Positions 41,280-64,000 of a DNA stretch of 64,000 nt are shown here, piece after piece. A program made the position numbers and the translations under genes. The notes beneath the pieces were generated by a model. The model saw nothing but the letters and a program-made list of their open reading frames with translations. It had not been told where the DNA came from and searched no databases. The stretch's first letter is position 1; the number at the start of each line of letters is the position of its first letter. Location: assembly GCF_056746865.1 (NCBI RefSeq), contig NZ_CM163382.1, one strand, 5' to 3'.

Positions 41280-42533
41280 ATGCTGGAACAAATGGGCATT
41301 GCCGCAAAGCAAGCCTCGTATAAATTAGCGCAACTCTCCAGCCGCGAAAAAAATCGCGTGCTGGAAAAAATCGCCGATGAACTGGAAGCACAAAGCGAAA
41401 TCATCCTCAACGCTAACGCCCAGGATGTTGCTGACGCGCGTGCCAATGGCCTTAGCGAAGCGATGCTTGACCGTCTGGCACTGACGCCCGCACGGCTGAA
41501 AGGCATTGCCGATGATGTGCGCCAGGTGTGCAACCTCGCCGATCCGGTGGGGCAGGTGATTGATGGTGGCGTACTGGACAGCGGCCTGCGTCTTGAGCGT
41601 CGTCGCGTACCGCTGGGGGTTATTGGCGTGATTTATGAAGCTCGCCCGAACGTGACGGTTGATGTCGCTTCGCTGTGCCTGAAAACCGGTAACGCAGTGA
41701 TCCTGCGTGGTGGCAAAGAAACCTGTCGCACTAACGCTGCAACGGTGGCGGTGATTCAGGACGCCCTGAAATCCTGCGGCTTACCGGCGGGTGCCGTGCA
41801 GGCGATTGATAATCCTGACCGTGCGCTGGTCAGTGAAATGCTGCGTATGGATAAATACATCGACATGCTGATCCCGCGTGGTGGCGCTGGCCTGCATAAA
41901 CTGTGCCGCGAACAGTCGACGATCCCGGTGATCACAGGTGGTATAGGCGTATGCCATATTTACGTTGATGAAAGCGCGGAGATCGCTGAAGCATTAAAAG
42001 TGATCGTCAACGCGAAAACTCAGCGACCGAGCACATGTAATACGGTTGAAACGTTGCTGGTGAATAAAAACATCGCCGATAGTTTCCTGCCCGCATTAAG
42101 CAAACAAATGGCGGAAAGTGGCGTGACGTTACACGCTGATGCAGGTGCACTGGCGCAGTTGCAGACAGGCCCCGCGAAGGTGGTGGCTGTTAAAGCGGAA
42201 GAGTATGACGATGAGTTTCTGTCATTAGATTTGAACGTCAAAATCGTCAGCGATCTTGACGATGCCATCGCCCATATTCGTGAACACGGCACACAACACT
42301 CCGATGCGATCCTGACCCGCGATATGCGCAACGCCCAGCGTTTTGTTAACGAAGTGGATTCGTCCGCTGTTTACGTTAACGCCTCTACGCGTTTTACCGA
42401 CGGCGGTCAGTTTGGACTGGGTGCGGAAGTGGCGGTAAGCACACAAAAACTCCACGCGCGTGGCCCAATGGGGCTGGAAGCACTGACCACTTACAAGTGG
42501 ATCGGCATTGGTGATTACACCATTCGTGCGTAA
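41280..42533 (+). CDS. proA: Gamma-glutamyl phosphate reductase
   Basis: 417 aa aldehyde dehydrogenase-fold protein following proB. Confidence 0.95.
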
Positions 42534-42647
42534 ATAAAACCGGGTGATGCAAAAGTAGCCATTTGATTCACAAGGCCATTGACGCATCGCCCGGTTAGTT
42601 TTAACCTTGTCCACCGTGATTCACGTTCGTGAACATGTCCTTTCAGG

Positions 42648-42723
42648 GCCGATATAGCTCAGTTGGTAGAGCAGCGCATTCGTAATGCGAAGGTCGGAGG
42701 TTCGACTCCTCTTATCGGCACCA
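42648..42723 (+). tRNA. thrW: tRNA-Thr (anticodon CGU)
   Basis: GCCGATATAGCTCAGTTGGTAGAGCAGCGCATTCGTAATGCGAAGGTCGGAGGTTCGACTCCTCTTATCGGCACCA: cloverleaf, T-loop GGTTCGA, encoded CCA end. Confidence 0.92.
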
Positions 42724-42850
42724 TTTAAATCAAGTAGTTACCTCACATTCAATTACACCACATTTTCCTCCTGTGCCGTATTTGTGCCATTGTAACCCTG
42801 GCAATTCATCAAAATACTGTTCTGACATCAGGCAGTGCAGGTGCAGACAT

Positions 42851-43066
42851 TTAAGCCAATTGCTGCCGCCATTCCTTGACGTGGTCAATCAGGGCGCGGA
42901 GCTTTGGTGCAATATTGCGACGCTGTGGGAAATACAGATAGAAGCCCGGAAATTGTGGAAGAAAGTCATCAAGCAGCGATACAAGCTTACCGCTTTCAAT
43001 ATATGGCCTGAAAGTTTCCTGAGTGGCAATTGTTATGCCTGCGCCGGCAAGAGCCAGCCTCAACAT
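42851..43066 (-). pseudogene. Remnant of a LysR-family regulator (C-terminal fragment only)
   Basis: The 71-aa ORF ...LVSLLDDFLPQFPGFYLYFPQRRNIAPKLRALIDHVKEW resembles a LysR C-terminal substrate-binding domain end. No N-terminal HTH portion is present. Confidence 0.4.
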
Positions 43067-43164
43067 CAGACGCAGATCATTCTGCTAATCCCACCGATGC
43101 TTCGGTCTGGAGTGGTAAATTAATATTGGACACAGTTTTATTTTCTCTCTTTTTCGAGGGCTAT

Positions 43165-43431
43165 ATGAACAGGAAGAATACATCCCTAAGCGGTTAATGC
43201 TGGCGTAATCAATAGACCAGCATTAATCACGGATGATTACCAATCAGACAGATATGGTTAAATCGTCGAATTCATAATTAATACTTTTTCTTACGCCGCT
43301 GAACAGCTTGAAAAGGATACATATTTTAAATATCAGTGAAGTGAACAGTTTATTGCCGTTATTAATAGAGATGGAGGAATAAATACGCGTATTCTACTAT
43401 TGCAACAAAAACAACGATGATGATCAGTTTT
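43165..43431. repeat. Copy A of a ~270-bp duplicated segment (homologous to 63041..63193 plus 63890..64000)
   Basis: By eye, roughly 80-90% identity to two separated segments near ykgO/ykgM. In copy A the two halves are contiguous. Confidence 0.75.
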
Positions 43432-43641
43432 CATAATGAAGTAACCTGACAGATATAAAAATGTTGATTGAGGCTCAATGCCCGGATGAAGGTTGTCGAG
43501 GGAGCCAGGTGGTTTTTTCTTTTGGGTGATCTCCATTGCTGGATAGTCCCCTCTTTCTCGCTCAAAGCAGACCCTGGAATTGAACGCAGAGGGACTACCT
43601 GACACAATTTTGCACAGTGAAGAGTCGGTCGTTATTAACGT

Positions 43642-44526
43642 TCAGATTTTCAATGTATCAATGACCATCCGCAGGGCGGGGGAGACGTTGCGATGAGGGT
43701 AATAGAGAAACAATCCCTCCATTCGCAGGCTGTAACGCTGCAACACCCTGATAAGCTTACCGTGTTCTAAATCATCCGCGACCAGTTCAACAGGAACATA
43801 GGCCAATCCGAGGCCCAGCCGGGCTGCTTCTGCTTCCATATAGCTGTCGGATAAGGCCCATTGCCCTTCAGGGCGATGAGTGATTTTTTTATCATCCTGA
43901 TTGAGTTCCCACTGGTATACGCTGCCGTCGGCAAACTGATAGGCGATACAGGGATGCGCCTTTAAATCCGCCGGGGTTTGCGGAAAACCATAGCGACGAA
44001 AATGTTCCGGAGTCCCCACAATTGCCATCTCCATATCGGGCGTGATGCGTACCGCGACCATACCCTGGCCGACTTCAGGCCCCAGGCGGACACCTGCATC
44101 GAATCTTTCCTCGATGATATCGACGAACCGGCTCTCATTTATCAGTTCAAGCCGGATATCAGGATATCGCTGTTTAAATACCGCCAGCTTTGGCAGCAGG
44201 CATTTATCAATCGCGTGCTGGCTGGCATTGATACGCACCGTGCCGGAGGGCGTCTCTCGATAGTGCGCCAGCGTGGCAAGCCCAAGATCTAACATTTCAA
44301 ATCCAGATGCCGTCTTCTGGTAGAGCTGCTCGCCTGCTTGTGTCAGCGACAGTTTACGCGTGGTGCGCACTAGCAGCTGGACGCCGAGCCTTTCTTCAAG
44401 CTCGCGAACAGAACGGCTGACTCCTGACTGAGCAAGACCCAGCCGCTGAGCCGCTGCGGTAAAGCTGCCTTCCCGCACCACCTGCATAAACAGGTACAGC
44501 TCGTTGTAGTTCTCCCTTTTCGCCAT
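43642..44526 (-). CDS. LysR-family transcriptional regulator
   Basis: 294 aa with an N-terminal HTH (FTAAAQRLGLAQSGVSRSVRELEERLGVQLL), divergent from the hydrolase gene. Confidence 0.85.
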   Translation of the reverse strand: MAKRENYNELYLFMQVVREGSFTAAAQRLGLAQSGVSRSVRELEERLGVQLLVRTTRKLSLTQAGEQLYQKTASGFEMLDLGLATLAHYRETPSGTVRINASQHAIDKCLLPKLAVFKQRYPDIRLELINESRFVDIIEERFDAGVRLGPEVGQGMVAVRITPDMEMAIVGTPEHFRRYGFPQTPADLKAHPCIAYQFADGSVYQWELNQDDKKITHRPEGQWALSDSYMEAEAARLGLGLAYVPVELVADDLEHGKLIRVLQRYSLRMEGLFLYYPHRNVSPALRMVIDTLKI

Positions 44527-44691
44527 TGAAACATCCCCCCTTCATGCCGGCAATCTCCGCATTAATTTATAACAATATGGTATTAATCTTAGCATTAATC
44601 GCCCCCTAATCAGCACTAATTCTGCTCATTATAATGACCCCATCAAAGCAAAGCACCGCAGCGTTTTCCGTCGGAAACCTGTATCTCTCTA

Positions 44692-45849
44692 TTGTTTTTT
44701 ATGGGGATTTTTATGAAAGCCTTCACCCGAACGCTAAAAACCGCGATGCCGACCATGCTGCTTTTCGCATCATTAAGTGGAGTCACGACAATGAGTTATG
44801 CTGATTCAACCAATCCTAATGCCCCTGTGTCCATGACAGATAAATGGGATAAAACGTTCGCCGAGAGCCAGAAAGTCGATCACCGTAAAGTCTCGTTCCC
44901 GAACCGATATGGCATCACCTTAGTGGGCGATCTTTACCTGCCTAAAGACCGTGGCGATCGCAAGCTGGCGGCGATTGCGGTCAGTGGGCCATTTGGCGCG
45001 GTGAAAGAGCAATCCAGCGGCTTGTATGCGCAGACGCTGGCGGAACGAGGGTTTGTTACCCTGGCGTTCGATCCTTCTTACACCGGGGAAAGCGGCGGCT
45101 ATCCGCGAAACGTCGCCTCACCGGATATCAACACTGAAGATTTCAGCGCGGCGGTGGATTTCTTAGGGCTGCAAAAAGAGGTAGATCGCAACCGTATCGG
45201 GCTGCTCGGTATTTGTGGCTGGGGCGGCATGGCGCTGAACGACGTGGCGATGGATACCCGCGTTAAAGCGGTAGCTACCAGCGTGATGTATGACATGAGC
45301 CGGGCGATGGGTCATGGTGTGGGGGATGGCAAAGACCGTTATTCTACCGCCGACCGTCGTGCCGTTCTGCAATATCTGAATGAACAGCGCTGGCAGGATG
45401 CGCAGAGCGGAACGTTCGCTCACGGTGGTCATGATATTAATGTCGATAGCAACGGCAAGGTCAGTGCGGGCGAGCGCATTCTGCCAGAAACGCTGCCGGC
45501 AAATCCTCATCCGGTACTGAAAGAGTTCTTTGACTACTATCGCATGCCGCGCGGCTTCCACGAACGTTCCGTTAACTCTACCGGGGCGTGGACGGCAACG
45601 ATGCCGCTGTCATTTATGAATATGCCGCTGTTGAGCTACGCCAGTGAAATCACCATTCCGACGCTGATTGTGACCGGTGAGAAAGCACATTCACGCTATT
45701 TTGCTGAAGATGCTTACAAGGCGGTTGGCAGTAAAGACAAAGAGTTGGTGGTGGTACCAGGGGCAAATCACGTGGACCTGTACGATAACGTGGCCGGAAA
45801 AATACCTTTCGCGAAGTTCGAACAATTTTTCCAGACCAAACTGAAATAA
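44692..45849 (+). CDS. Secreted alpha/beta-hydrolase with a Cys-type nucleophile elbow (dienelactone-hydrolase-like)
   Basis: Signal-peptide-like N-terminus and a GICGWGG (G-x-C-x-G) motif. Confidence 0.65.
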   Translation: MFFMGIFMKAFTRTLKTAMPTMLLFASLSGVTTMSYADSTNPNAPVSMTDKWDKTFAESQKVDHRKVSFPNRYGITLVGDLYLPKDRGDRKLAAIAVSGPFGAVKEQSSGLYAQTLAERGFVTLAFDPSYTGESGGYPRNVASPDINTEDFSAAVDFLGLQKEVDRNRIGLLGICGWGGMALNDVAMDTRVKAVATSVMYDMSRAMGHGVGDGKDRYSTADRRAVLQYLNEQRWQDAQSGTFAHGGHDINVDSNGKVSAGERILPETLPANPHPVLKEFFDYYRMPRGFHERSVNSTGAWTATMPLSFMNMPLLSYASEITIPTLIVTGEKAHSRYFAEDAYKAVGSKDKELVVVPGANHVDLYDNVAGKIPFAKFEQFFQTKLK

Positions 45850-45924
45850 AACCTCTCCTGAATTGATGCAAAGCCACCGGCCATAGGCTGGTGGCTTTTA
45901 TCCTGATCTTTGTGAAATTTCACT

Positions 45925-47118
45925 ATGTCGACACTAAGCCAAACACTATCACCTCATCATCAGCGCGCATACTGGGGCGGTATTTTTGCCATGACCCTGT
46001 GCGTGTTTGTGCTGATTGCTTCTGAATTTATGCCCGTCAGCCTGCTCACGCCGATTACCCGCGATTTAGGCGTGACGGAGGGGCTTGCAGGGCAGGGGAT
46101 TGCTATCTCCGGCGCGCAGGCGGTTCTGACCAGCCTGACGCTTTCAACGCTAGCTGGAAAGATGAATCGTAAGTTCCTGCTGCTGGGGATGACGGTTCTG
46201 ATGGCCGTATCGGGGCTTATTATTGCGCTGGCTTCCAGTTATCTGATGTATATGGTCGGTCGTGCGATGATTGGTGTGGCTATTGGCGGATTCTGGTCGA
46301 TGTCAGCGGCAACGGCGATTCGTCTGGTGCCGCAGCATCAGGTCACGCGTGCGCTGGCAATTTTCAACGCCGGTAATGCGCTGGCGACGGTCGTGGCCGC
46401 ACCGCTGGGAAGCTATCTGGGGGCTACGGTCGGATGGCGAGGCGCTTTCTTGTGCCTGGTGCCCATCGCGGTTGTCGCCTTTATCTGGCAGTGCATCAGC
46501 CTGCCAAGCATGGATGCGAATAAAAGCCACACTTCATGTGGCGCGGTATTCCGCTTATTTAGCCGCCGCATGGTTGTGGTCGGCATGATAGCTTGTGGCC
46601 TGTTTTTCATGGGGCAGTTTGCGCTATTCACCTATGTGCGCCCGTTTCTGGAGTCGGTGACACGGGTTAATTCCTTAGGCTTGTCGTCGATTTTGCTGAT
46701 TATCGGCGTGGCCGGTTTTATTGGCACGCTGGTTGTTTCGGCATTTCTCAACAGAAAATTCTACCCCACGCTGATGGCCATACCCGGACTGATGGCCGTC
46801 ATTGCCATCGGTCTGATGCTTACCGGGCATCACGTCTGGACGGTCTCGCTGCTGTTAGGACTCTGGGGCATGCTGGCCACCGCCGCGCCAACCGGATGGT
46901 GGACATGGATTGCGCGTACGTTGCCTGACAACGCCGAAGCTGGAGGCGGGCTCATGGTCGCGGTGATTCAGCTCGCCATCGCCCTTGGATCAACGGCAGG
47001 AGGCATTGTGTTTGACCGCCTTGGCTGGCAGAGCACGTTTGCTATGAGTAGCGTGCTGCTCCTTTGCGCTGGCGTACTGACCTTTGTTACCGCACGCCAG
47101 AAGGCCGGTGCGCTTTAG
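45925..47118 (+). CDS. MFS-family transporter
   Basis: 397 aa with about 12 predicted TM helices, following the hydrolase gene. Confidence 0.85.
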   Translation: MSTLSQTLSPHHQRAYWGGIFAMTLCVFVLIASEFMPVSLLTPITRDLGVTEGLAGQGIAISGAQAVLTSLTLSTLAGKMNRKFLLLGMTVLMAVSGLIIALASSYLMYMVGRAMIGVAIGGFWSMSAATAIRLVPQHQVTRALAIFNAGNALATVVAAPLGSYLGATVGWRGAFLCLVPIAVVAFIWQCISLPSMDANKSHTSCGAVFRLFSRRMVVVGMIACGLFFMGQFALFTYVRPFLESVTRVNSLGLSSILLIIGVAGFIGTLVVSAFLNRKFYPTLMAIPGLMAVIAIGLMLTGHHVWTVSLLLGLWGMLATAAPTGWWTWIARTLPDNAEAGGGLMVAVIQLAIALGSTAGGIVFDRLGWQSTFAMSSVLLLCAGVLTFVTARQKAGAL

Positions 47119-47298
47119 TCCGGCGAGGGCGCGCGTTGCTGAATAAGTTACACAAGGCGATGAGCGCCCACTATGGGTTGGGCGCTCTTTTAAACGATTT
47201 AGGTGATTTTCTAAAACGGCTACTGCAGATTTTTTCTCTTAATTTATGGGTATTTCCCCCGGAGGCGAGAAAGCGCTCTCCACGCCCGGCCGCAAGGA

Positions 47299-48255
47299 TC
47301 AGGACGACGGGGGCAGGCATGAATCCTCATCCTGATGGAGACGTACAGAGGCGACTTCTGCCAGCACGGAGAGTGCCAGAGTATGCGCATCCCGGGCTTT
47401 GGGGAATATCCCGACGGGTGCCCGGATTTGCGCTGTCTCCTCCCTGGACCATCCCAGCTCGTGGAGCTTTTGCAGACGTAAAGTGTGGGTTCGATAGCTG
47501 CCCAATGCGCCGAGATAAAAGGGTTTTGCTTCTCGCGCGGCCTGCAACACTGGCAGCTCCCGGTTGAGATCATGGCACAGCAAAATGACCGCCGTATCGG
47601 TATCGATCTGAGCGCTGGCTGAGGCCGGAAAAAGATCGAAGATATGGCTGTCATAGCCTGTGGCTGCTGCAAGACTCGCGGTTGCCTGCGCCTCAAGAGA
47701 ACGTCCGTAAATCATCAGACTGACGCATGGCCTGAACCCCACCTCAAAGCCATTGAGATTCCAGCCCGTCCGGGTTTGCGTGGGCAGGCACACCAGCGAT
47801 TGAGCTTGCGGATCGTAGCGCAGACCCGCCGGTTTTCTCTGTTCCAGGCGGTTCAGCACGGCGAGCAGAGGCTGTGCCGAGCGTAGTTTATGGAGCGTCA
47901 GCGTGATCCCACCGCCGCAGGGCAGAACGATGTCAAACCACGGCGAACCTTCGCCATAGCAAATTTCGCGATCGCGGCCTGAGCCCATCACCTCCAGCGC
48001 TTCAAAAGCGGCAGCGGCCTCCACGCAGCCGCCAGAGACAAAACCGCAGTAACGGCCATCTTCGCGCACCACCATCTGCGCCCCGAGCGGGCGCGCCGCG
48101 CCGCCGCGTATCTCCACCAGCGTCACCAGCACCGCTCCTTTACCGGACATTAGCGCCTCTACGGCGAAGCGCAGAATGGTCCGGTGGTCATCGGTGAGAA
48201 ACGCCTGCTCTGGCTTATGCCAGTGCTCGTCTTTGTCAAAAAGCGAGTATGACAT
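47299..48255 (-). CDS. paoD: XdhC-type molybdenum-cofactor insertion chaperone
   Basis: 318 aa, lying downstream on the minus strand of the three oxidoreductase subunit genes. Confidence 0.8.
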   Translation of the reverse strand: MSYSLFDKDEHWHKPEQAFLTDDHRTILRFAVEALMSGKGAVLVTLVEIRGGAARPLGAQMVVREDGRYCGFVSGGCVEAAAAFEALEVMGSGRDREICYGEGSPWFDIVLPCGGGITLTLHKLRSAQPLLAVLNRLEQRKPAGLRYDPQAQSLVCLPTQTRTGWNLNGFEVGFRPCVSLMIYGRSLEAQATASLAAATGYDSHIFDLFPASASAQIDTDTAVILLCHDLNRELPVLQAAREAKPFYLGALGSYRTHTLRLQKLHELGWSREETAQIRAPVGIFPKARDAHTLALSVLAEVASVRLHQDEDSCLPPSS

Positions 48256-62138: not shown

Positions 62139-63040
62139 TTACAGGTACATTCAGTTTCTTTAGTAAATCGGAAGTAAATAAGATACGTAGCACATATCAA
62201 TATAGGTTAAACGAGATTAAGTTTTAATTATTTTCGATTGGGCTTAAATTTATGTTTTTTTCCTGATGAGTGTCAATATGTGAACAGAAAAGGAATTCCA
62301 TGGTTAAGTCAATATTTACAAAAAATGAAAATATTGCTTTTTTGATAAGAAGAAAAAGACATTCAGTTTCATAAGGTTATTGGCAATATAACGTTCAATT
62401 CTTACTTGCATTTTATATTAGCCAGGAACTTTGCCCTGAGGTGTTAGGAATAGTCTTAATGTGTTGTGTAATGGACTAGTAAAAAAACAAGTTTAAATGA
62501 TAAGAAATAGAATATAAAACTATAATGAGTCATAATTAAAGATGATTTGCCAATCAGTAAAGTGTTTTAATGGATTAACATGCCGCACAAAATGGTTATG
62601 GGTGTTCATTCCAATAAGTGATGAAAAATTAAACAGGTGTAAGTACGTCATCTGTCCGGTAAGCCCCCTAAGAGCCAAATTAAGTGAAGTTAAACGAAGA
62701 CTGCCAGTTGTCACAGGAACGATGGCCTCTTTGCCAGGGCACTGCATTCAGTCATCTGTGCGCGTTACTCTAACTGGCACTCGAACGTCGGCGATGGGGT
62801 TACCGGTGGATCAGGCCGTTCCTGTGGCGTAAACGTTTTTATGTCAGTACCAACAGATTTACCACATTTATCATCTTAACCGTTTGAGTGTAAATGCAGG
62901 CTGCGTCGCAAAGGGAGGAAACTGAGTGGCGTGTTCAGTCTAAAAGAGAGTTGATGCCAGCATACAGGGCGCACCTGGTCAACAAGTCAACATTAATATA
63001 ATGGAATATTCGGAGAGAAACGTCAGGCAGTTGACCTTAA

Positions 63041-63193
63041 ATGAACAGGAAGATACATCCCCAGGAAAATTAATGCTGGTGTAATAAATACACCAACATT
63101 AATCCGGTCTGATTATTAATCAGACAAATATCGTTAATTCGTCGAATTTTGAATCAACGTTTTTTCTTACGACCCTGAACGGCCTTAAAACGT
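63041..63193. repeat. Copy B, part 1 of the duplicated segment (matches 43165..43315)
   Basis: Visible alignment, e.g. ATGAACAGGAAGATACATCCCC...TTAATCAGACAAATATCGTTAATTCGTCGAATT...TTTTTCTTACGACCCTGAAC. It overlaps the 3' end of ykgO. Confidence 0.75.
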
Positions 63194-63293
63194 GGATTAG
63201 ATTTACAAATCACATATAGCCGTCCTTTTCGCTTCACAATCTGACAGTCTGGATGGCGTTCTTTTGCGGTACGCAGAGAGTTAAGGACTTTCA
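63153..63293 (-). CDS. ykgO: Ribosomal protein L36 paralog (zinc-independent type)
   Basis: 46 aa [18 protein letters not shown]...AVQGRKKKR. Its start overlaps the ykgM stop. Confidence 0.8.
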
Positions 63294-63560
63294 TCATGCC
63301 CCCTTTTTCGTGCTAACAAAACGACCAAAACGTTGGGTGAATCGTGCAACATTTCCTTCTGATGCCACTGTTCTCAGCTTCCCTGTATAGAACGGGTGCG
63401 ATTTAGAAGAGACATCAATTGTCACGTACGGATACGTTACGCCATCCAGCTCAATCTCACGGTCTGTTTTGATAGTCGAGCCGATTTTAAAGTACTCATC
63501 AACACTGGTGTCATGGAACACCACAGTACGATACTCAGGATGGATATTGGGTTTCATCAT
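63294..63560 (-). CDS. ykgM: Ribosomal protein L31 paralog (type B, non-zinc-binding)
   Basis: 88 aa [19 protein letters not shown]... lacking the CxxC zinc ribbon, with a Zur box immediately upstream. Confidence 0.9.
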
Positions 63561-63844: not shown

Positions 63845-63889
63845 GGATATAATAATTACTTACAAAAAGGGAGAGGATGCATATTTTAA

Positions 63890-64000
63890 ATATCACTGAA
63901 GTGAACAGTTTATTGCCGTTATTAATAGAAATGGAAAAATAAATAGGCGTATTCTACAATTGCGACAAAAACAACGATATTAATCAGTTTATGACTGATT
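63890..64000. repeat. Copy B, part 2 of the duplicated segment (matches 43319..43431)
   Basis: CATATTTTAAATATCACTGAAGTGAACAGTTTATTGCCGTTATTAATAGA... is about 90% identical by eye to 43319..43431. It runs to the window edge. Confidence 0.75.

Follow-up and report, generated by a model that had tools for sequence, protein, structure and literature searches.

In Escherichia coli K-12 the interval between the threonine tRNA gene thrW and paoD is arranged as thrW, the cryptic prophage CP4-6, ptwF, yagP and paoD. We have analysed the same interval (proBA-thrW-paoD) in a 64,000-nucleotide stretch of E. coli chromosome (contig NZ_CM163382.1 of assembly GCF_056746865.1), here called the window, to which all coordinates refer unless a separate locus label such as L001 is given. 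In the window thrW is followed by the C-terminal remnant of one LysR-type regulator gene (LysR1) and then by three intact genes, encoding a second LysR-type regulator (LysR2), a putatively exported alpha/beta hydrolase and a transporter of the major facilitator superfamily (MFS); these are referred to below as the trio or the module. The K-12 interval resembles that of the window in that its fragment yagP is the same gene remnant as LysR1 and that the flank following its pseudo-tRNA likewise bears an integrase vestige. It differs in that CP4-6 is present, with its integrase gene intF, and LysR2, the hydrolase and the MFS gene have been lost by a different, larger deletion.

The trio itself can be compared with several described proteins. 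PA2218 of Pseudomonas aeruginosa is a full-length homologue of the window hydrolase, and PA2219 (annotated “membrane protein OpdE”) and PA2220 (a transcriptional regulator) fit the pattern of the trio; the adjacency of their locus tags in PAO1 suggests that these two are the MFS and LysR homologues. In Pseudomonas guariconensis a LysR gene is divergent from an MFS-hydrolase pair, and the MFS and LysR proteins are 60% and 41% identical, respectively, to those of the window. Pseudomonas differs from E. coli in that the MFS gene precedes that of the hydrolase. A further likeness is to PgrR (YcjZ) and YcjY of K-12, where a LysR regulator is divergent from an alpha/beta hydrolase of the same GxCxG family, but YcjY is only 306 amino acids long, its partners are mpaA and a dehydratase pseudogene with no MFS gene, and the peptidoglycan-recycling neighbourhood is absent around the window module. 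The hydrolase also recalls dienelactone hydrolase, a Cys-His-Asp alpha/beta hydrolase, in the cysteine of its GxCxG elbow and in a histidine near the C-terminus; it is, however, around 140 amino acids longer, with a large insertion and a glutamate as the putative acid, and the Pfam model DLH (PF01738) is not among its hits, matching weakly in some relatives only. For the transporter, NepI (YicM) and the DHA1 exporters are the best-scoring named family. A search of the literature on PA2218, YcjY, opdE, thrW and yagP found no functional study of the hydrolase family; in an old proposal, YcjY and other GxCxG proteins are possible polymerases of complexed poly-beta-hydroxybutyrate (cPHB) (PMC3709699).

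We consider it likely that the locus is jointly explained by an unoccupied thrW site, a decaying accessory flank and a LysR2-regulated unit of periplasmic hydrolase and efflux transporter.

The LysR2-hydrolase-MFS module

The features of the module are as follows.

43642-44526, minus strand: LysR2, intact LysR-type regulator, 294 amino acids (Pfam)
44527-44712: divergent control region, 186 bp, strongly conserved between E. coli, Serratia, Klebsiella and Yersinia on alignment
44569-44583: candidate LysR box ATAAC-N5-GGTAT (T-N11-A), invariant in the four genera
44630-44635: putative -10 element TATAAT, invariant in the four genera, with a poor -35
Upstream of ATG 44713: Shine-Dalgarno sequence GGGGA, invariant in the four genera
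44713-45849, plus strand: alpha/beta hydrolase of the PA2218/YcjY family, 378 amino acids (open reading frame (ORF) 44692-45849; PDB homology)
44713-44802, plus strand: predicted signal peptide (sequence features)
45214-45216, plus strand: Cys168 of the nucleophile elbow GICGWG, the sole cysteine of the protein
45679-45681, plus strand: Glu323, putative acid (family alignment)
45769-45771, plus strand: His353 (family alignment)
45925-47118, plus strand: MFS transporter of the DHA1/NepI-like efflux type, 397 amino acids (Pfam MFS_1)

LysR2 contains both domains of a LysR-type transcriptional regulator (LTTR), HTH_1 (PF00126, E=1.4e-23) and LysR_substrate (PF03466, E=4.7e-35), and its homologues in other genera are of equal length. 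It is encoded on the strand opposite to the hydrolase, and the preliminary description of this DNA, which had been made from the letters and their reading frames and had claimed an intact regulator divergent from a hydrolase, is upheld on this point. At 41% identity to PgrR (BLASTP, E=9e-74), and with no mpaA, ycjG or mppA nearby, LysR2 was rejected as an orthologue of that regulator and is taken to be a paralogue; its NCBIfam matches all lie under the equivalog cut-offs.

The hydrolase matches the structure of PA2218 (PDB 2HDW) with E=7.9e-125 over residues 23-375, and that of YcjY (5XB6) with E=1.6e-43, which places it in this family; its identity to YcjY, its K-12 paralogue, is 34%. The GxCxG elbow ascribed to it earlier is present as GICGWG. 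The family comprises 460 clusters at 50% identity (E<=1e-30) and spans Proteobacteria, Bacteroidota, Firmicutes, Melainabacteria and others. Across 18 diverse members VKEQ 97-100, D120, S127, D149, D181-x-R183, R280 and Y357-D358 are invariant, the cysteine is found in 14 of the 18 and the C-terminal histidine in most.

The transporter matches MFS_1 (PF07690) with E=2.7e-37 over residues 24-355 and has hydrophobic segments throughout, confirming its assignment to the superfamily. Among NCBIfam models it scores 289.8 bits against NepI (cut-off 584), 173 against sugar efflux and 135 against Cmx, with the symporter families below 45, and the alignment to NepI runs from end to end (residues 13-388 against 15-389 of the model). 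Equation with the NepI purine ribonucleoside efflux pump was rejected, since 289.8 bits falls below the equivalog cut-off; the transporter is therefore a paralogue, and the substrate of NepI is not transferable to it.

The extent of the two plus-strand genes depends upon the choice of start codon. The PGAP annotation starts the MFS gene at 45991, giving a protein of 375 amino acids with 22 residues cut off, while the homologues have 395-397; for the hydrolase the homologue clusters are mostly of 378 amino acids, and ATG 44713 and the GGGGA upstream of it are kept in the four genera. These homologue lengths, together with conservation around the start, point to the longer form of each protein, and ATG 44713 is the likely start of the hydrolase. 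From this ATG the N-terminus reads MKAFTRTLKTAMPTMLLFASLSGVTTMSYA/DS, where the slash marks the predicted end of the signal peptide, and is Sec signal peptide-like, as had been supposed; the candidate peptide, read from the sequence by feature, has K2, R6 and K9, a hydrophobic stretch AMPTMLLFASLSGV and then SYA/D. The gap between the hydrolase and MFS genes is 75 bp, and the two are probably co-transcribed.

In the divergent control region the candidate LysR box lies around 66 bp upstream of the inferred hydrolase transcription start (near 44642). A poor -35 next to a good -10 is classically seen in promoters that depend on an LTTR activator. When the spacer between pgrR and ycjY was compared by eye with that between LysR2 and the hydrolase, no obvious common operator motif was seen.

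The distribution of the module was examined in complete E. coli genomes (n=5,426), to which all genome counts refer. At least 80% of 42600-47300 is held by 908 of these (17%), and the hydrolase and MFS genes are therefore accessory rather than core; the proposition that they are ubiquitous core genes of known function does not hold. The trio is present in O157:H7, in ST131 and in this lineage, and absent from K-12, B and IAI1. Many complete E. coli genomes, such as that of strain 118UI, are 100% identical to this 4.7-kb query. Beyond the species, a block of the three genes with homology stopping at the gene boundaries is found in Serratia marcescens (86.6% nucleotide identity) and Kluyvera (91.6%, window 43557-47135), and the same block occurs in Klebsiella michiganensis, Yersinia frederiksenii, Hafnia, Phytobacter and Enterobacter, the flanking genes being unrelated between genera. 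The three genes are also found, shuffled but within a few kb of each other, in P. guariconensis, Luteimonas, Bosea, Brevundimonas, Microvirga, Paracoccus and a metagenome contig, and the shuffled linkage spans alpha-, beta- and gamma-proteobacteria; over 80 species loci of hydrolase homologues, LysR accompanies the hydrolase in 29 and MFS in 19. This joint retention across genera bears out the view that regulator, hydrolase and transporter form one unit.

In S. marcescens the module adjoins thrW and proA, inverted relative to E. coli (L004 7212-8662, L005 9092-13084), and one strain of that species has a P4-like satellite (primase, AlpA, Ash) at that thrW site. Adjacency of the module to thrW as a general rule was rejected, as only E. 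coli and S. marcescens show it among the 13 loci checked for tRNAs. In several phyla, hydrolase homologues repeatedly have a gene for a Cyclophil_like2 protein (PF18050) directly beside them (12 of the 80 loci; for example L008 8601-9104, L016 4576-4998 and L017 4493-4858); the E. coli module has no such gene, whose product may be a functional partner of the hydrolase. A second allele of the LysR-hydrolase pair, diverged in sequence (around 78% nucleotide and 87% amino acid identity) and without an MFS gene, is found in some Escherichia (E. coli STEC299, ESNIH1); Escherichia sp. ESNIH1 has two copies of it (L024, L026).

The thrW site and its flank

The features surrounding thrW, and those between it and the module, are as follows.

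40.1-41.3 kb: proB, upstream of thrW
41280-42533: proA, upstream of thrW
42648-42723, plus strand: thrW, tRNA-Thr(CGT), a single tRNA gene (ARAGORN)
42738-42792, minus strand: 3' end of a thrW-type tyrosine integrase gene, stop plus 17 codons (nucleotide comparison with occupied strains)
42851-43081, minus strand: C-terminal remnant of LysR1, 76 codons of 299, a K-12 yagP-type pseudogene (Pfam LysR_substrate, E=5e-9)
43077-43081: deletion junction with TCATT/TCGTT microhomology (alignment to the long form)
43162-43430: partial copy of the 3' ends of ykgL, ykgO and ykgR (self-BLAST)
43362-43430, minus strand: ykgR' pseudogene with an in-frame stop (partial pseudogene in PGAP)
47299-48255, minus strand: paoD, then paoC, beyond the region of interest

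Several searches were made for an element at thrW. Phage and integrase profiles from PHROGs and Pfam, applied to every ORF of at least 40 amino acids in 42.7-43.6 kb, gave no match. The 25-nt 3' end of thrW, with up to 3 mismatches allowed, was found only within the tRNA itself, and blastn-short with the 52-nt 3' half of the gene gave only chance matches of at most 11 nt, with no attR in the window or in the long form of the locus described below. In agreement with the preliminary description, there is no prophage at thrW; the 3' half of the tRNA gene is not repeated, and the search for att-like repeats of the tRNA 3' end that the description proposed found none in either form. Its further claim that no integrase or phage gene follows thrW stands in part: an intact integrase is absent, but 42.7-43.6 kb does hold a 17-codon, 55-nt integrase vestige, visible at the nucleotide level only. 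Judged from the sequence, the thrW attachment site is presently unoccupied in this strain. In K-12, where CP4-6 had been placed at thrW, the genome of BW25113 indeed has yagM-ykgV-yagN-intF of CP4-6 and a pseudo-tRNA directly to the left of the same LysR fragment.

The vestige was recognised by comparison with thrW-occupied strains, in which homology to the window extends 69 nt beyond the tRNA and into the 3' end of the integrase gene. Strain TST3 has an intact integrase of 384 amino acids (L019 2514-3668; Pfam Phage_integrase, E=1e-34), which ends in NGTNTAQEENVVYLNVR before the stop codon, and the vestige translates in frame as NGTNTAQEENVV-stop-LNVR-stop, one codon having changed from TAT to TAA. 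The vestige and the TST3 gene differ at 6 of the 55 nt, of which five changes are synonymous and one is nonsense. The breakpoint, gccattg/taacc, is identical in IAI1 and in the long-form strain LH50-c, and 3,868 of the genomes hold at least 80% of 42724-42800. We take the 55 nt to be a scar left across the species by an old element at thrW. Alternatively, they could be host flank that has been captured by islands, that is an extended att homology and not a scar; the synonymous bias separates neither possibility from the other, since under both readings the island copy is a coding sequence.

The tRNA gene and the DNA immediately beyond it also vary between strains. The T-stem pair 50-64 of thrW (42697/42711) is G50-C64 in the window and U50-A64 in IAI1, LH50-c and R10 by alignment; strain STO_Bone2 has G-C, as in the window, and the difference is a compensatory double change. 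The 77 nt past thrW are unusually divergent, with 176 genomes at least 99% identical and the majority only 80-90%. The pair change together with the divergent 77 nt suggests allele exchange with integrating elements.

The LysR fragment beyond the vestige is C-terminal, as had been proposed, and an identical sequence is labelled “missing N-terminus” by PGAP. A recent duplication of the intact LysR2 was rejected as its origin, the two sharing only short seeds of 79-80% identity and 30% protein identity. Its source is instead evident from strains with a long form of the locus (LH50-c, O157:H7), where the order is thrW, LysR1, a divergent oxidoreductase gene of the short-chain dehydrogenase/reductase (SDR) type, a 92-aa ORF, the ykgR' fragment, LysR2, hydrolase, MFS and paoD, and where LysR1 is a full-length gene for 299 amino acids (L001 2751-3650). 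The 2,050 bp absent from the window correspond to L001 2982-5031 and held the N-terminal three quarters of LysR1, the SDR oxidoreductase and the 92-aa ORF; the latter has no similarity to YkgL, and paralogy between them was rejected. The forms of the locus are the following.

Long form: full LysR1, SDR oxidoreductase and 92-aa ORF; 388 of 5,426 genomes
Window form: 2,050-bp deletion leaving 231 nt of LysR1; junction in 179 of 5,426 genomes
IAI1/K-12/B form: 339 nt of LysR1 fused around 50 bp from paoD (window ~47244); 2,685 of 5,426 genomes
ST131-type form (STO_Bone2, L012 5631-12011): islet joined at around window 43198, with LysR2-hydrolase-MFS retained

The fullest form consists of two divergent LysR-controlled modules, LysR1 with the SDR oxidoreductase and LysR2 with the hydrolase and MFS genes. 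In the window the first module has been destroyed by the 2,050-bp microhomology deletion, with the second left intact, and in K-12, B and IAI1 both modules have gone through a separate deletion of around 6 kb; the IAI1/K-12/B junction keeps more of LysR1 than the window does, and the deletion is therefore independent. The DNA from the scar to paoD can accordingly be described, from these alignments, as an accessory flank undergoing loss by deletion. The islet of STO_Bone2 is of the defence type and includes an integrase fragment, an ash-family gene, a 3,210-nt gene for an RNA-directed DNA polymerase and an AbiEi/AbiEii toxin-antitoxin pair.

Between the LysR1 remnant and LysR2 lies a duplicated segment, described earlier as being of about 270 bp, and self-BLAST located its counterpart at 63.0-64.0 kb: 43162-43314 corresponds to 63038-63190 (78.6%) and 43314-43430 to 63874-63990 (90.6%). 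The distal copy is the ykgL-ykgO-ykgM-ykgR locus, with the ykgO and ykgM ORFs at 63154-63560, and the ykg identities agree with the annotation in other genomes. The copy near thrW contains the 3' end of ykgL, the 3'-terminal ~37 nt of ykgO and the 3'-terminal 23 codons of ykgR, and lacks the 684 bp that carry ykgO-ykgM. These two genes are Zur-regulated and encode paralogues of ribosomal proteins, and it is precisely their segment that is missing; either the copy has lost ykgMO by deletion, or it shows the locus as it stood before these genes were inserted. The duplicate is present in the long form also, and is old and non-functional. In strain FDAARGOS_1289, otherwise 100% identical, IS150 lies between ykgR' and LysR2 at around window 43.6 kb (L002 3521-4890).

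Proposed function of the module and alternative readings

In the mechanism that we propose, LysR2 would bind the candidate T-N11-A box around 66 bp upstream of the hydrolase transcription start and, on sensing a small-molecule effector, would activate the hydrolase-MFS operon from its promoter of good -10 and poor -35. The hydrolase, after export by the Sec pathway, would cleave an ester, lactone, thioester or amide in the periplasm by means of a Cys168-His353-Glu323 triad, and the NepI/OpdE-like transporter would pump the compound or its product out of the cytoplasm. We infer that such a unit would serve detoxification or export, and not uptake and catabolism. The preliminary description had left the choice between a catabolic and a detoxification unit; the regulated unit fits our results, but catabolism is the weaker of the two options, because the transporter is of the efflux type and the hydrolase is predicted to be exported. 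A more specific suggestion, which we offer only tentatively and which is on balance doubtful, is that the trio may be a horizontally mobile module, spread across Proteobacteria, whose role would be to inactivate and expel one particular toxic natural compound, for example an ester, a lactone or a peptide-like antibiotic.

Several observations weigh against our main interpretation. The promoter and the LysR box are calls made by consensus plus conservation, and a generic scan for sigma-70 promoters and terminators found no promoter in the divergent spacer, its counts being at or below the shuffled expectation. The PGAP start of the hydrolase, at 44791, would give a protein of 352 amino acids without the signal peptide, and the direction of transport by the MFS protein is not readable from sequence. 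Within the hydrolase family the cysteine is replaced by glycine in 4 of the 18 members, and VKEQ, D120, S127, D181-x-R183 and R280 are better conserved than the nucleophile; hydrolysis may therefore not be the conserved chemistry. The alternative origin of the 55 nt next to thrW, given above, belongs with these points.

Of the rival explanations the one that survives best, although we regard it as unlikely, is that the whole interval from thrW to paoD (LysR1, SDR, LysR2, hydrolase and MFS) is the cargo of an ancient thrW island whose integrase and attR have been deleted. The integrase 3' vestige abuts thrW directly, and the same trio stands next to thrW, inverted, in S. marcescens; it is found at unrelated loci in Klebsiella, Yersinia, Kluyvera and Enterobacter, with a nucleotide identity to the E. 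coli copy of 91.6% in Kluyvera and 86.6% in Serratia, and it is patchy in E. coli, being carried by only 17% of genomes. However, an attR-like repeat was found neither in the window nor in the long form, and the absences of the trio are explained by deletion junctions inside LysR1 and not by an empty insertion site. The LysR1 stump of K-12 lies beyond the right end of CP4-6 (the pseudo-tRNA), and present-day elements therefore treat the interval as flank. Further, thrW adjacency is confined to E. coli and S. marcescens among the 13 loci checked, and the GC content of the module (0.51-0.57) falls between the values of its neighbours, base composition being uninformative as an island signal. The locus is better described as accessory-genome decay of the ordinary kind next to a tRNA hotspot, plus a well-conserved regulator/hydrolase/efflux module.

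It is improbable that the module is a periplasmic counterpart of PgrR-YcjY acting on peptidoglycan-derived peptides. The identities of 41% to PgrR and 34% to YcjY and the same divergent layout would agree with such a role, as would the grouping of the hydrolase family with S9/S15 peptidase-like folds. PgrR is catalogued as regulating the recycling of peptidoglycan; its regulon includes ycjY-...-mpaA, and its targets in SELEX (systematic evolution of ligands by exponential enrichment) include the ycjY/ycjZ spacer (PMC5934670). Yet none of the genomes examined has an mpaA-, ycjG- or mppA-like gene close to the module, YcjY is itself without demonstrated activity and lacks the signal peptide predicted for the window hydrolase, and the partner of the latter is an efflux-type MFS and not a peptide importer.

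It is equally improbable that the module is a catabolic unit, in which a substrate taken up by the MFS protein would be cleaved by the hydrolase for nutrition, with LysR2 as the inducer of both genes: a divergent LysR with an enzyme and a permease is a common layout of catabolic operons and the transporter does have weak matches to aromatic-acid and sialate symporter families, but its strongest matches are to exporters (NepI 290, sugar efflux 173 and Cmx 135 bits, against less than 45 for symporters), the signal peptide predicted on the hydrolase would have it act before uptake and not after, and in none of the genera examined is the trio followed by genes for catabolic enzymes.

As regards thrW-paoD, specialists in E. 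coli genome plasticity will find the result unsurprising, and its practical value is modest. It shows that the “empty” thrW flank already bears, species-wide, either an integrase-gene scar or an extended att homology, and it explains the K-12 pseudogene yagP as what is left of a LysR/SDR module whose complete form persists in O157:H7-type strains. The trio, which is Proteobacteria-wide, includes a protein family of solved structure (2HDW) and does not occur in the usual laboratory strains, is a sensible choice for the discovery of function in carrier strains. If the proposal of a module that inactivates and expels a toxic compound is true, its patchy presence in E. coli would give a strain-specific resistance or niche phenotype.

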